A stretch of 64,000 nt of DNA, taken from IMG/VR virus record IMGVR_UViG_3300028920_000023. One strand, 5' to 3'. Origin of the DNA: a virus. Lineage: Duplodnaviria > Caudoviricetes. The notes under the pieces were generated by a model that saw only the letters and a list, made by a program, of their open reading frames with translations, was not told the DNA's origin and searched no databases. This document shows positions 29,738-57,355 of this stretch, one piece after another (the stretch's first letter is position 1; every line of letters begins with the position of its first letter). The position numbers were made by a program, and so were the translations under genes.

Positions 29738-29929
29738 GTGGAATTCGTCTTCAGAGCCAGAGAACTTATGCATCTTCAATCTTTCGCCTTGCTTGTCACC
29801 AAGCTTAAGCGCTTGCACATCGAGTTCCACCTTAAGTGGACTGACGATGCTATGCAAGTGTCTTTGATTACAAACACAAAGATCGACCTTTGTATAGTCT
29901 CTAGACCATATCTGCGTGAACCCAACTGA
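29738..29929 (+). CDS. 63-aa ORF between two identical hammerheads
   Basis: AAGGAG RBS, GTG start; stop TGA is the hammerhead core UGA. Confidence 0.55.
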   Translation: MEFVFRARELMHLQSFALLVTKLKRLHIEFHLKWTDDAMQVSLITNTKIDLCIVSRPYLREPN

Positions 29930-29974
29930 AGAGGCCAGGCGGTCCCTGGCCGAAACACCCTCGGGTGTCTTGGG
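29921..29974 (+). ncRNA. Canonical type I hammerhead ribozyme, copy 2 (identical 54 nt)
   Basis: Same sequence as 29634-29687; cleavage after 29969. Confidence 0.92.
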
Positions 29975-29998
29975 AAACCACATTGAAAGGAGGCAGAA

Positions 29999-30328
29999 AT
30001 GCCAAACCAGATCCCAAGCAACCTCCCCGGACACGTGCAGCGGAGGCTGCTTTCCCAGGTGGAAAGGCCCGCAAGGGCTTTCTTGCTTGCGACGGAACTC
30101 GCGAAATCCTGGAAGACCTCTTCATTCCTTGAGGAAGACAACATTGAGCAAAAATTCCTCACGGCCTATGGGGCCTGCGAGCCCAACCTCCAGAAGCGCC
30201 TCTCACAGGCTCTCAAGAGATATCGAAGAGCCTGCAGGCAAGCCAACATTTCGCCGGATGACCGCTTCAGCGTCCTCCGATACACCCACCTCAAGCCGAA
30301 GAAAATCCCAGTGAACAGCTTGGCCTGA
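29999..30328 (+). CDS. Hypothetical protein
   Basis: AAAGGAGG RBS. Confidence 0.8.
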   Translation: MPNQIPSNLPGHVQRRLLSQVERPARAFLLATELAKSWKTSSFLEEDNIEQKFLTAYGACEPNLQKRLSQALKRYRRACRQANISPDDRFSVLRYTHLKPKKIPVNSLA

Positions 30329-30388
30329 ACCAAGCGAAGCCCTTTCCTCTCTGGAAAGGGCAGGGACACAGAAGGAGAAAGGAGAAGG

Positions 30389-30589
30389 ATGACAAACGCA
30401 GAACTCATCGAGCTGCTCCAGAAGCAGCCGCCCGAGCAGGAAGCCCTGCTCACGATAGTGGACGAAGACACAATGACAACCTCGGTGGAGGCCCTCCACC
30501 GGGTTGACAAAGAAGAACTCATCCAGGATGGGTTCGACCTCGAAGACGCTAAAGATGCCGAGCCTATCGGTATCTTCATCAAGCGATAA
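30389..30589 (+). CDS. Small acidic protein
   Basis: AAGGAG RBS; MTNAELIELLQKQPPE pattern. Confidence 0.8.
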   Translation: MTNAELIELLQKQPPEQEALLTIVDEDTMTTSVEALHRVDKEELIQDGFDLEDAKDAEPIGIFIKR

Positions 30590-30767
30590 ATCTGTGCTCG
30601 AAAAACCCGCATGGAGCGCCTGCCAAGGCCCCATGAGATGGGGGACTCACATCGGCACCGACCGGAAACCGGTACGGGGTTTCCCCGAGCACTTGAAAAG
30701 AACGAAGCCCTTTCCTCACTGGAAAGGGCCGGGGCAACAGAAAGGAGAAAACATGCAAGTCGTTAGT

Positions 30768-54359: not shown

Positions 54360-55562
54360 ATGCATATTTCGCAGTTGAAAGAGGCTATTCTGTTATGCCG
54401 AGAAGCCGGAATCACACCCTGGGTCTGGGGCCACAGAGGACTAGGCAAAAGCAGCCTGGTCAAACAAATCGCCCAATCATACGGAATCGGCTTCCGAGAC
54501 TTCCGTTGCAGCCAAATCGAACACAGCGACCTGCGCGGCCTACCAGACCGCAGCGAGGGAGTAACGAAATACTTCCCACCAGACGAACTCCCCAGGGAGA
54601 TCGACAAAGACGAAGCACTACGCAGACTCGGGGCACAGCACAAAAACCCCCCGGACGAGGAGATAGCCGAACAAGCTAGGAAGATGGTCAGGGAAAACAA
54701 CAACGGCATCATCCTGCTTGATGAGCTGAACCGAGCAGAAGATGACGTGATCCAGGCCAGCTTCCAGCTCGTGCTCGACCGCAGAATCGGAAACTATGAA
54801 CTCCCAGACGGCTGGAGTGTGGTGGTCGCAGGCAATTACCCAGAGGGATACACCACAAACAACTTCGACGACCCAGCCTTTTTGGATCGTTTCTGTCACC
54901 TGGAGCTCACAATCGGTGACGAATACATCGCCGAGTGGGCGTCATATATGCGGAATTACGGCTCCTCGGCCAGGATCATGCAGTTCATCGGTTCGAACAC
55001 GAACCACCTCTGCGGCGATGTCAAAGGCAACCTCAACTTCACAATACAACCCAGCCCGAGAAGCTGGGAAATGCTGGCCAAAGTCGAAGAACACTCCGGT
55101 GACCACAGCCCAGAGGTCGTGCACCAGGTGCGTGTGGGGCTCATCGGAGCTGCCCTTGCACAGCATTATAAGCAATTCTCGTGTAAGGTCGATCCCAAGG
55201 ACGTTATCAACAACGGAACAGGGCAACTCCAGAAGCATAATCTGGACCGAACAGAGACTCAGGGTCTGATGTTCGGCATCCTGAGCCACCTGTCAAATTC
55301 CAAAATCTCACCAAAACAGCGCAACAACGTCCTCGATTTCATGCGCCATCTGGCGAAGAACAAAGAGAGGGATCTGGCTGCGGTGTTCGGCATCCAGCTC
55401 ATCCGGGACGAGGTTAAGGACCAAAGCGCCGTCGGTGCAGTCTTATCAAATCCGAACGTAGCAAAGCTCCTGGCCAGCGGAAAGAAATCTGGCTGGGTAC
55501 CCGCAATCGTGGCTGACAAGGAGTTGACCGCGCTAGTAAGCAAAGCAGCCTGGGGGCAATAA
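54360..55562 (+). CDS. MoxR-like AAA+ ATPase
   Basis: GHRGLGKSS, LLDELNRA, VVAGN, LDRF, PSPRSW. Confidence 0.88.
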   Translation: MHISQLKEAILLCREAGITPWVWGHRGLGKSSLVKQIAQSYGIGFRDFRCSQIEHSDLRGLPDRSEGVTKYFPPDELPREIDKDEALRRLGAQHKNPPDEEIAEQARKMVRENNNGIILLDELNRAEDDVIQASFQLVLDRRIGNYELPDGWSVVVAGNYPEGYTTNNFDDPAFLDRFCHLELTIGDEYIAEWASYMRNYGSSARIMQFIGSNTNHLCGDVKGNLNFTIQPSPRSWEMLAKVEEHSGDHSPEVVHQVRVGLIGAALAQHYKQFSCKVDPKDVINNGTGQLQKHNLDRTETQGLMFGILSHLSNSKISPKQRNNVLDFMRHLAKNKERDLAAVFGIQLIRDEVKDQSAVGAVLSNPNVAKLLASGKKSGWVPAIVADKELTALVSKAAWGQ

Positions 55563-55563
55563 A

Positions 55564-56886
55564 ATGACAAAAGAGCTTACACATGATCTGCTCATGGGGG
55601 CAAGGGGGAGGCTTCTAGCTCGCTTCCCCTGGTATGGGATCTTCGCATCCCAGATGCTCTTCAAAGAGAGCAAACATTTACCGGCCCCAATGGGCGTAAA
55701 CATCGGCCATAAGGGAATCAACTGCTACTGGAATCCAGAACTGCTGGATCAATACAATATAGACCAGATTATCTGTATCATCCAGCACGAAATCGATCAC
55801 GTAGTCCGTCTTCACTGCGTCCGGTCCTACACCAGACAGAGAACGGCCTGGAACATCGCAGCAGACGCTATCGTGAACGGCAGAAAGAACAGACCGAACA
55901 TCACCGGAAGGAAAAACAAGGACGGCCTTCCCGAAAATTGTATCTGGTATGAGCACGAAGAGGATAACCTCACCACAGAGGAATATTACAAGTGGCTGAA
56001 GGAAACACTCGTTTTCTGCCCCTGTTGTGGTGATCCGGTAGGCCGAAAGAACCAGAACCAAGACGGCCAAGGAGGAGGAGGAGGAGGAGGAGGAGGACAG
56101 GACGGCCAAGAAGCCCAGGACGGCCAAGGAGGAGGACAGGACGGCCAAGAAGACCAGGACGGCCAAGGAGGAGGACAGGACGGCCAAGGGTGCCCGGTCT
56201 GTGGCTCCGGCAGAAGCCCATCCTCTGATGGCAGCAGATTGACCGACGACCACGACTGCTGGGGCGGCACGACAGTCAGCGAGGACCAAGCCAGACAGAT
56301 GGTCGCCACGGCTGCAACAAACTCCTCAAATCAAGCCGGATACACTCCGGGGCATCTTGTGCAAGCCATCGGAGAGTTATTAGAGAGCAAAGTCAACTGG
56401 CAAGCCTTGCTCAGGAAAATCATCGGTCGGAAATGCGGAGCAAAACGCAAGACCTACAGCCGCACCAACCGAAGAACAAAAGCATTCGGAACCAGGGGCG
56501 TCAGTACGCACGGCAGCGACCTACTGGTCGTAGCTGTGGACACTTCAGGCTCCGTAGATGATAAAATGCTGCACCAATTCTTCAGCGAGGTTGAGGCAGT
56601 ATCTCAGCGCTTCAGGATTATGTTGGTGCAGTTTGATCACGAAATACAGTCCGTGGGCACATACCGGAAAGGCGACTGGAAGAAGATTAAAGCCCATGGC
56701 CGTGGGGGCACCTGCTTCATTAACCTCTTCGAGGGTCTAGAGGAACGTAACCTCGTGGGCAAGTTCCATATCGTCTTGACGGATGGCGAAGCTTGTTTCG
56801 GGGACGAGCGTCCCTACCCAGTGCTTTGGGCGATCGATGGAGGTGTGGTCCCCCCATGGGGCCAATACATCAAGGTTGAACCATGA
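55564..56886 (+). CDS. DUF2201-type metallopeptidase plus VWA protein with Gly/Gln/Asp linker
   Basis: HEIDH, NIAADAIVN, DGQGGG repeats, VDTSGS, GRGGT, LTDG. Confidence 0.88.
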   Translation: MTKELTHDLLMGARGRLLARFPWYGIFASQMLFKESKHLPAPMGVNIGHKGINCYWNPELLDQYNIDQIICIIQHEIDHVVRLHCVRSYTRQRTAWNIAADAIVNGRKNRPNITGRKNKDGLPENCIWYEHEEDNLTTEEYYKWLKETLVFCPCCGDPVGRKNQNQDGQGGGGGGGGGQDGQEAQDGQGGGQDGQEDQDGQGGGQDGQGCPVCGSGRSPSSDGSRLTDDHDCWGGTTVSEDQARQMVATAATNSSNQAGYTPGHLVQAIGELLESKVNWQALLRKIIGRKCGAKRKTYSRTNRRTKAFGTRGVSTHGSDLLVVAVDTSGSVDDKMLHQFFSEVEAVSQRFRIMLVQFDHEIQSVGTYRKGDWKKIKAHGRGGTCFINLFEGLEERNLVGKFHIVLTDGEACFGDERPYPVLWAIDGGVVPPWGQYIKVEP

Positions 56887-57080
56887 TTGGAGGAGACGTG
56901 AAAAAGAAAACTGAAGCTAGGAGGCAGTTAGGTCAGCTTACCAGGGCTGAACTTATTGCTCGCTGCCTCCAAGCTGAGGAAAATCTGGATTACGAGCGGC
57001 GTAAAGTCTCTCATCGTTGTATCGATGCGCCTTGTCGTGAATGCGATGAGGCCCATAAGAAGGAATGGGGCACAGCCTAA
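56883..57080 (+). CDS. Small Cys protein, homologous to the N-terminus of 58293-59117
   Basis: ERRKVSHRCIDAPCREC.EAH.KEW. Confidence 0.65.
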   Translation: MIGGDVKKKTEARRQLGQLTRAELIARCLQAEENLDYERRKVSHRCIDAPCRECDEAHKKEWGTA

Positions 57081-57131
57081 CCTCGACGGAGGCAGTCACA
57101 ATAGCGGAAGAAACCGCAGAAGGAGGGAAAT

Positions 57132-57317
57132 ATGTCCGAGGTGATAAAGGATGCAAGCGGAAGACCAATTGGCAAAATCGTTACCGAGGTGGACGGAACA
57201 ATAAAGGTTTACGACGATTTGGGCTTGCCAAAAGGCAAAGTCACCGAAGATGGGACTTTCGATGATCTTGGCATCAAGATTAGCTCAGCTCAGGTTCCCG
57301 GTTTGCTTCTAGACTGA
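57132..57317 (+). CDS. Small beta-hairpin repeat protein
   Basis: IKDASGRPIG..YDDLGLPKG..FDDLGIKI. Confidence 0.75.
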   Translation: MSEVIKDASGRPIGKIVTEVDGTIKVYDDLGLPKGKVTEDGTFDDLGIKISSAQVPGLLLD

Positions 57318-57355
57318 TGAGCACGAAGCAGAAGGCTTCGTGCTTTCTGCCTCAG
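57312..57355 (+). ncRNA. Hammerhead-like motif (family A, G15.1-C16.1)
   Basis: CUGAUGA-G(CA)C-GAA-GCAGAAGGC/GCUUUCUGC-C-UCAG. Confidence 0.5.

Follow-up and report, generated by a model that had tools for sequence, protein, structure and literature searches.

Overlap of stop codons with the core of hammerhead-type intergenic modules in an orphan-gene block of a Caudoviricetes virus

Background

Clustered hammerhead ribozymes flank single genes in polycistronic RNAs of prophages and phages, and a processing of long transcripts into gene-length messages has been proposed for them (Perreault et al. 2011, PMC3088659). Type I hammerheads with a helix II of 0-2 base pairs (bp) occur in untranslated regions of mycoviruses and show a slow but measurable cleavage; one of these ribozymes fills an entire intergenic spacer of 66 nucleotides (nt) and is cut just before the next start codon (PMC13725137). 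Engineered miniribozymes and minizymes, with helix II replaced by the pair G10.1-C11.1 and a linker of about 4 nt, are active in vitro (Hendry et al. 2004, PMC544870). For T4-type phages, Arbiol et al. 2010 (PMC2839356) describe PeSL cassettes, repeated intergenic regulatory modules that lie on either side of orphan genes in variable regions and presumably drive modular shuffling. In a virus of the Caudoviricetes (Duplodnaviria; IMG/VR record IMGVR_UViG_3300028920_000023) we studied a repeated element that begins with the box CUGAnGA and lies between small genes, several of which end on a UGA of this box; the whole stretch of DNA analysed, 64,000 nt, is called the window below. A term search of PMC3088659 gave no mention of stop codons, overlaps or open reading frames (ORFs), and our literature searches found no paper stating an overlap of stop codon and hammerhead core. 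The element is probably a hammerhead-type intergenic module, and the stop overlap a tolerated side effect of dense packing and of the duplication and joining of modules, not a selected switch.

Results and discussion

Module family and conserved core

The CUGAnGA-headed repeat is a spacer element between small genes. About 30 copies were found, all of them on the plus strand, from 29.6 to 43.9 kb and around 59.2 kb. Many ribozyme-type motifs of the same orientation are thus arrayed in the spacers of co-directional small orphan genes on the plus strand; a screen of ten proteins of this block against Pfam and PHROG revealed no family accounting for any of them. Three groups of modules were distinguished. 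Group A1 comprises two identical copies of 56 nt (29634, 29921), canonical type I hammerheads that fold at minimum energy into a three-way junction of 5-, 7- and 5-bp helices. Group A2 has five intact copies (35260, 36741, 37467, 38156, 38766), a 3-bp helix II and the pair A15.1-U16.1; it also includes the diverged copy at 43858 and four degenerate copies (34086, 38910, 39181, 42786). In group B, helix II consists of the pair G10.1-C11.1 and a linker of 2-4 nt, followed by GAA and a helix III hairpin of 8-9 bp. A covariance model trained on ten B copies and run over the whole window retrieved 14 copies with E<1e-11, all on the plus strand; degenerate copies were also recovered at 30323, 30691 and 37258, together with weak matches at 59203 and 32102.

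The core, C3 U4 G5 A6 N7 G8 A9 / G12 A13 A14 / non-G cleavage base, is invariant in the two A1, the five A2 and the 14 B copies and was lost in the copies at 30326, 30691, 34086, 37261, 38910, 39181 and 42786. Helix II is closed by G10.1-C11.1 in all groups, with a length of 7 bp in A1, 3 bp in A2 and this single pair in B. The pair 15.1-16.1 is A-U in A1, A2 and a few B copies, U15.1-A16.1 in most B copies and G-C in two. In helix III, which as a helix is well supported, 97 % of the cells are paired; compensatory A-U/U-A swaps were seen at 15.1-16.1, and the many G-U changes fit an RNA of the plus strand. Between 33.6 and 41.2 kb the plus strand has a composition of only 19 % A and 14 % C. 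Within this G/T-rich stretch G and U have accumulated at the free positions (N7, linker, base 17, stem wobbles and leader), while all core bases were retained in 14 of the 14 copies. As the core was kept where the free positions drifted, it is clearly under purifying selection.

Stop codons in the core

The preliminary description had named nine TGA triplets as stops of ORFs running into the element (29927, 30326, 30771, 31850, 32105, 37261, 39603, 42789 and 57315). All nine close a frame that is open upstream, and the triplet at 30771 ends a mini-ORF of six codons, MQVVSS, as had been claimed. Their position on a UGA inside the core is confirmed with some qualifications. The ORF at 42789 ends on U7-G8-A9, not on U4-G5-A6, and the core there is dead, as are those at 30326 and 37261; whether 57315 belongs to the module family is doubtful. 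Gene support was derived from gene calls on six contigs with 99.5-100 % identity to the window and from a leave-one-out codon-frame likelihood test. Eight of the nine terminated ORFs are supported genes, seven having a gene call and seven passing the likelihood test: gene 42648..42791, situated outside the related contigs, was accepted on the likelihood test alone (margin +10), and gene 57132..57317 on its gene call alone, the likelihood test covering the other seven. A tenth overlap, absent from the earlier list, is presented by gene 38986..39186 with its stop at 39184-39186. Further overlap candidates at 29640, 34086, 34165, 34890 and 59206 were rejected or left doubtful by the coding tests. 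The gene caller also drew ORFs across modules (33637..33834, 36679..36801, 37439..37540, 38753..38989), probably in error, in G/T-rich sequence.

The region at 57315 was not recovered by the B covariance model. Its minimum-energy fold is an 11-bp hairpin flanked by a CUGA/UCAG pairing and by a pairing of the last codons with the next Shine-Dalgarno sequence; this site may be a normal tandem stop beside a coupling hairpin. The hairpin at 57305-57372 joins the last codons and the stop of 57132..57317 to the Shine-Dalgarno region of 57369..57557, a classic layout of translational coupling.

UGA followed by C is a weak termination context. The stop at 31850 is of this kind, and its frame remains open for 19 more codons up to the ATG of 31910..32107; a read-through would fuse both proteins, and the arrangement may be chance. 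At the other end of the modules, positions 16.1, 17 and 1.1 spell AUG at the predicted cut when base 17 is a U, at 39639 in frame with the called start 39666. A reading of the motif based on such an AUG at the cleavage site was considered and dropped, as the triplet is formed only with U at base 17.

Frequency of the overlap

The CUGAnGA box closes one frame of three, so that an overlap is expected by chance at one third of the junctions. In the window, 21 junctions have an upstream gene that is supported; the stop lies in the core at 9 of them (43 %; P=0.24 for a null of one third), at 8 of 20 with 57315 excluded (P=0.34) and at 5 of 17 with intact cores only; among the genes with their own stop, 3 of 12 are in frame. 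An independent sample was taken from IMG/VR in a scan for cores whose helix II is closed; the matches with all three helices were kept, namely 48 of type I (45 unique sequences) and 13 of type III. For 28 of the type I hammerheads an upstream ORF of at least 50 codons was present; eight of these ORFs (29 %) end on the core UGA, the others stop mostly 9-13 nt upstream, against helix I. In the type III control, none of nine upstream ORFs ends on the core UGA, as expected, because a cut upstream of the core would remove the stop. Judged by the refuting condition given in the preliminary description, an overlap frequency that matches chance, the suggestion that folding or cleavage depends on translation through the ribosome terminating on the core is not supported: the overlap is at frame chance in the window (9/21), among its intact cores (5/17) and in IMG/VR (8/28).

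Origin of the overlap

In the arrangement that we propose, the module occupies the space from one small gene to the next in a block of orphan genes on the same strand. A junction begins with the upstream gene, which is followed by the CUGAnGA box, a helix II of 7 bp, of 3 bp or of G10.1-C11.1 only, GAA, closed helix III hairpin, cleavage-site base, a short leader with a Shine-Dalgarno sequence and the next start. This is a type I arrangement with the predicted cut 3' of the whole core, so an upstream gene could enter the module and retain its stop after cleavage. With its invariant UGA, often a tandem in-frame UGAUGA, the box ends any gene that arrives in that frame without an earlier stop; with one frame closed, this is expected at about one third of the junctions, as observed. 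The overlap would be tolerated because the cut lies downstream and the upstream message keeps its stop, and no type III control shows an overlap. From the positions, frames and frequencies of the overlaps and from the duplications of modules we infer that the overlap is passive. For annotators and ribozyme hunters, a stop inside the CUGAnGA of a type I phage hammerhead would then be a normal outcome of packing, to be met at about one third of the junctions, for which no special mechanism is needed.

A ribosome with UGA in the A site covers about 12-15 nt downstream; on a B module, a terminating ribosome would cover the core to about G12-A14, and at the canonical copy at 29927 the last two codons form the 5' strand of helix I. 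Such masking of the core, and of helix I where present, would permit a selected translational coupling, in which folding and cleavage as well as the fate of the downstream message depend on upstream translation. We consider this very improbable, not only because the frequency equals the frame expectation in the window and in the IMG/VR sample. Four of the nine overlapped cores are dead, but none of the 12 others (Fisher 0.02; 0.07 with the dead 30691 copy added), and this would not be expected of a device selected for coupling. The association of overlap with dead cores also hints that the ribozyme is, if anything, harmed by translation into its core. Two of the dead overlapped cores have lost A6 to a mutation, and their ORFs run one codon further, to the second UGA. 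Moreover, own stops located 6-14 nt upstream would mask the core almost equally, so that a coupling effect would not be specific to the overlap, which adds little, and most modules lack helix I, which makes a cleavage of their own doubtful.

The preliminary description had offered as an alternative that incoming ORFs borrow their stop from the element, and this fits the locus better than a coupling. Module and leader were copied as a unit of 75-95 nt with the 5' edge at C3 or a few bases before it, and two duplicated module-leader pairs are present (40294/41031 and 39600/40690). The identical A1 copies flank a single gene of 63 amino acids (aa), 29738..29929, whose last two codons, the 5' strand of helix I, and stop lie inside the 56-nt A1 copy, and the TAA of gene 40756..40992 sits in a leader remnant. 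The paralogues 29230..29589 and 32515..32874, whose proteins share 84 % identity over 117 aa (82 % for the DNA), have different module types downstream, and the mini-ORF 30753..30773 looks like the remnant of a gene deleted between two modules. All this would also suit a cassette-type origin, in which the module with stop, fold, leader, Shine-Dalgarno sequence and start is a copied or recombined unit and new or truncated ORFs joined to it take their last codons and stop from it; the mini-ORF would then resemble a deleted cassette. Only joins in frame 0 would survive, since in either of the other frames translation would continue across the module; frame 0 is mildly in excess, and no supported gene crosses an intact module in another frame. 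Nevertheless a cassette-type origin appears unlikely. No gain or loss of a cassette was seen among the available near-identical contigs. There was no sign of site-specific recombination and no recombinase among the ten screened block proteins, although no search aimed at integron machinery or an integrase was made; neither a recombinase nor a circular intermediate is known here. The excess over one third is weak, and the unrelated canonical phage hammerheads of the IMG/VR sample have the same overlap rate.

A triple GACGATGAG repeat is located at 41003-41029, between the leader remnant and module 41031. No divergent relatives of the block were found. An IMG/VR search with three block proteins gave no relatives; the 144-aa protein was found only on six contigs 99.5-100 % identical to the window, and a nearby helicase had only matches of 26-27 % identity. 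Searches of IMG/VR and of a metagenome collection with DNA patterns of the B core yielded chance or coding matches only.

Departures from a standard hammerhead

Several observations weigh against a passive overlap in a hammerhead-type module. Helix I (5 bp) is present only in the two A1 copies. In B and A2 modules, which lack it, the duplex energy of the flanks is -2.8 kcal/mol versus -3.0 kcal/mol for mismatched partners, and only the pair 2.1-1.1 was retained. No Rfam hammerhead model reached the gathering threshold for any module; the top scores below the threshold were 21 bits for RF00008 and, on A1, 19.8 bits for RF03152, the nearest partial resemblance, and the B modules had none. Cleavage of the modules is a prediction. 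Counting all in-frame junctions, 12 of 21 are in frame (P=0.02), and the B modules by themselves reach 9 of 12, with a nominal P=0.004 for a subset chosen post hoc; a frame bias is weakly hinted at. The samples are small, with several short genes supported by codon statistics alone, and all related contigs found were 99.5-100 % identical.

The missing helix I in B and A2, the U15.1-A16.1 of most B copies and the Rfam result would also be compatible with a CUGAnGA box conserved as stop signal or as another non-ribozyme element, in which the likeness to the hammerhead is coincidental. We regard this as extremely improbable, since the full set of hammerhead core positions (C3-A9, G12-A14, H17) is invariant even in copies without an upstream ORF, two copies are textbook hammerheads, and the box closes one frame only. 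Readings of the motif as a kink-turn or box C/D element and as a sarcin-ricin or loop E motif were dropped on inspection, and an element stopping all three frames was ruled out, only one being closed.

Within the hammerhead-type interpretation, a one-pair helix II alone is, by analogy, no bar to function, and Tabler and coworkers reportedly found in 1994 that a helix I of 3 nt can suffice. Autonomous self-cleavage would be plausible only for the two canonical A1 copies. The B and A2 modules might conceivably be a working hammerhead derivative that dispenses with helix I and, in B, also with a proper helix II and with the canonical pair 15.1-16.1, and that may be active only if a helper holds the 3' flank, e.g., a phage protein or a ribosome that pauses or terminates on the core UGA. 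We give little credence to this possibility; if true, these junctions would physically link RNA processing to translation. The module family itself is the more interesting residue of this study, a full hammerhead core under selection and yet without helix I.

Feature list and neighbouring sequence

All modules and the genes that precede them are listed in Table 1.

Table 1 Modules of the window and their upstream genes, in order of position
Module	Position	Strand	Upstream gene and stop	Remarks
A1 copy 1	29634..29689	+	29230..29589, own TAA 53 nt before U4	56-nt identity; frame-0 ORF fails coding test
A1 copy 2	29921-29976	+	29738..29929 (63 aa), U4-G5-A6 at 29927-29929	Coding margin +29; gene call
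Degenerate B	30323-30365	+	29999..30328 (109 aa), ends on UGA	G8 and A9 lost; 15.1-16.1 is G-C; E=8e-7
Degenerate B without CUGA box	30691..30733	+		Followed by leader, Shine-Dalgarno site and mini-ORF; E=3.5e-7
Intact B	30768-30811	+	Mini-ORF MQVVSS 30753..30773 (6 codons), U4-G5-A6	
Intact B	31354..31397	+	No adjacent upstream gene	E=1e-15
Intact B	31847-31890	+	31418..31852 (144 aa), U4-G5-A6	Called on 4/4 contigs; margin +71; E=3e-16
Variant B	32102-32142	+	31910..32107 (65 aa), U4-G5-A6	Odd linker; 15.1-16.1 is A-U; weak match, E=3.3
Intact B	32875..32918	+	32515..32874, own TAA 6 nt before U4, in frame	
Intact B	33344..33388	+	No adjacent upstream gene	
Intact B	33669..33712	+	33408..33644, stop 30 nt upstream, in frame	
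Degenerate A2	34086..34132	+		Inside a stretch of about 520 nt of non-coding appearance
Intact B	34162..34206	+	ORF 33991..34167, ending on module UGA, doubtful	
Intact B	34887..34930	+	Frame-0 ORF 34665..34892 fails coding test	
Intact A2	35260..35310	+	Own stop 14 nt upstream	3-bp helix II; A15.1-U16.1
Intact B	35679..35721	+	Own stop 14 nt upstream	
Intact B	35886..35929	+	No adjacent upstream gene	
Intact A2	36741..36795	+	Own stop 64 nt upstream	
Dead B	37258-37299	+	36826..37263 (145 aa), ends on UGA	C3 to U; GAA to GGG; E=0.002
Intact A2	37467..37515	+	No supported adjacent gene	
Intact A2	38156..38204	+	Own stop 14 nt upstream	
Intact A2	38766..38815	+	Own stop 13 nt upstream	
A2 without CUGA box	38910..38951	+		
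Dead A2	to 39230	+	38986..39186 (66 aa), U7-G8-A9 (39184-39186)	First UGA now UGU
Intact B	39600-39643	+	39282..39605 (107 aa), U4-G5-A6	Called on 3 contigs; margin +53; E=8e-18
Intact B	40294..40337	+		Duplicated with leader at 41031
Intact B	40690..40733	+	Own stop 21 nt upstream, in frame	40 nt identical to the 39600 copy
Intact B	41031..41073	+	40756..40992, TAA in leader remnant	
Dead A2	to 42832	+	42648..42791 (47 aa), U7-G8-A9	First UGA now UGG (core CUGGUGA, A6 to G)
A2-like	43858..43905	+	31-aa ORF, own stop 11 nt upstream	Intact core; one helix III mismatch
Doubtful member	region to 57354	+	57132..57317 (61 aa), ends on UGAUGA	Gene call
Diverged B	59203..59244	+	Own stop 91 nt upstream	Different helix III sequence; E=0.15

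The base skew of the plus strand turns from A/C-rich to G/T-rich near 33400 and reverts near 43500, the genes remaining on the plus strand; free module positions track the local skew, the core does not. The stretch 33712-34236, about 520 nt with hairpins and the degenerate A2 copy, looks non-coding, and the ORFs of the gene finder there look spurious. Two minus-strand ORFs of 488 and 250 aa (36646-38861), antisense to G/T-rich plus-strand genes, are probably skew artefacts, stop codons being rare on the antisense strand. Helix III hairpins of the G/T-rich stretch are followed by U-rich runs and score as terminator-like, 46 being found versus 17.5 expected from shuffles (examples are 33685-33709, 34179-34203, 35280-35305 and 37485-37510); the hairpins might double as weak terminators or as protective 3' hairpins.

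Comparison with known systems

The attC site of integrons is a structured site at the 3' end of a cassette, can overlap the end of an ORF and acts as folded single-stranded DNA recognised by the integrase. By analogy, the modules may be loosely likened to attC sites as cassette ends; unlike attC, their G-U pairs fit an RNA of the plus strand (or a single plus strand). With the PeSL cassettes (PMC2839356) the modules share that they are repeated, intergenic and placed beside orphan genes, but PeSLs are promoter-plus-terminator stem-loops and not ribozyme-like, whereas the modules of the window have no associated promoter. The clusters described in PMC3088659 are similar in their many same-strand hammerhead motifs among small genes of unknown function; they differ in that most copies of the window lack helix I, and candidates of that kind were rejected in that paper. 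The type I arrangement, the long helix III and a helix II of about one bp are found again in the mycovirus hammerheads (PMC13725137) and in RAGATH-1 (RF03152), the consensus of which has a one-pair helix II. In these ribozymes helix I and the pair A15.1-U16.1 are present, and their sources are RNA viruses of eukaryotes or other bacterial settings, whereas the B modules match no Rfam hammerhead model. The miniribozymes of PMC544870 are synthetic and trans-acting, with long arms that form helices I and III, and are in this respect unlike the modules of the window; in its linker, however, group B is exactly the miniribozyme design.

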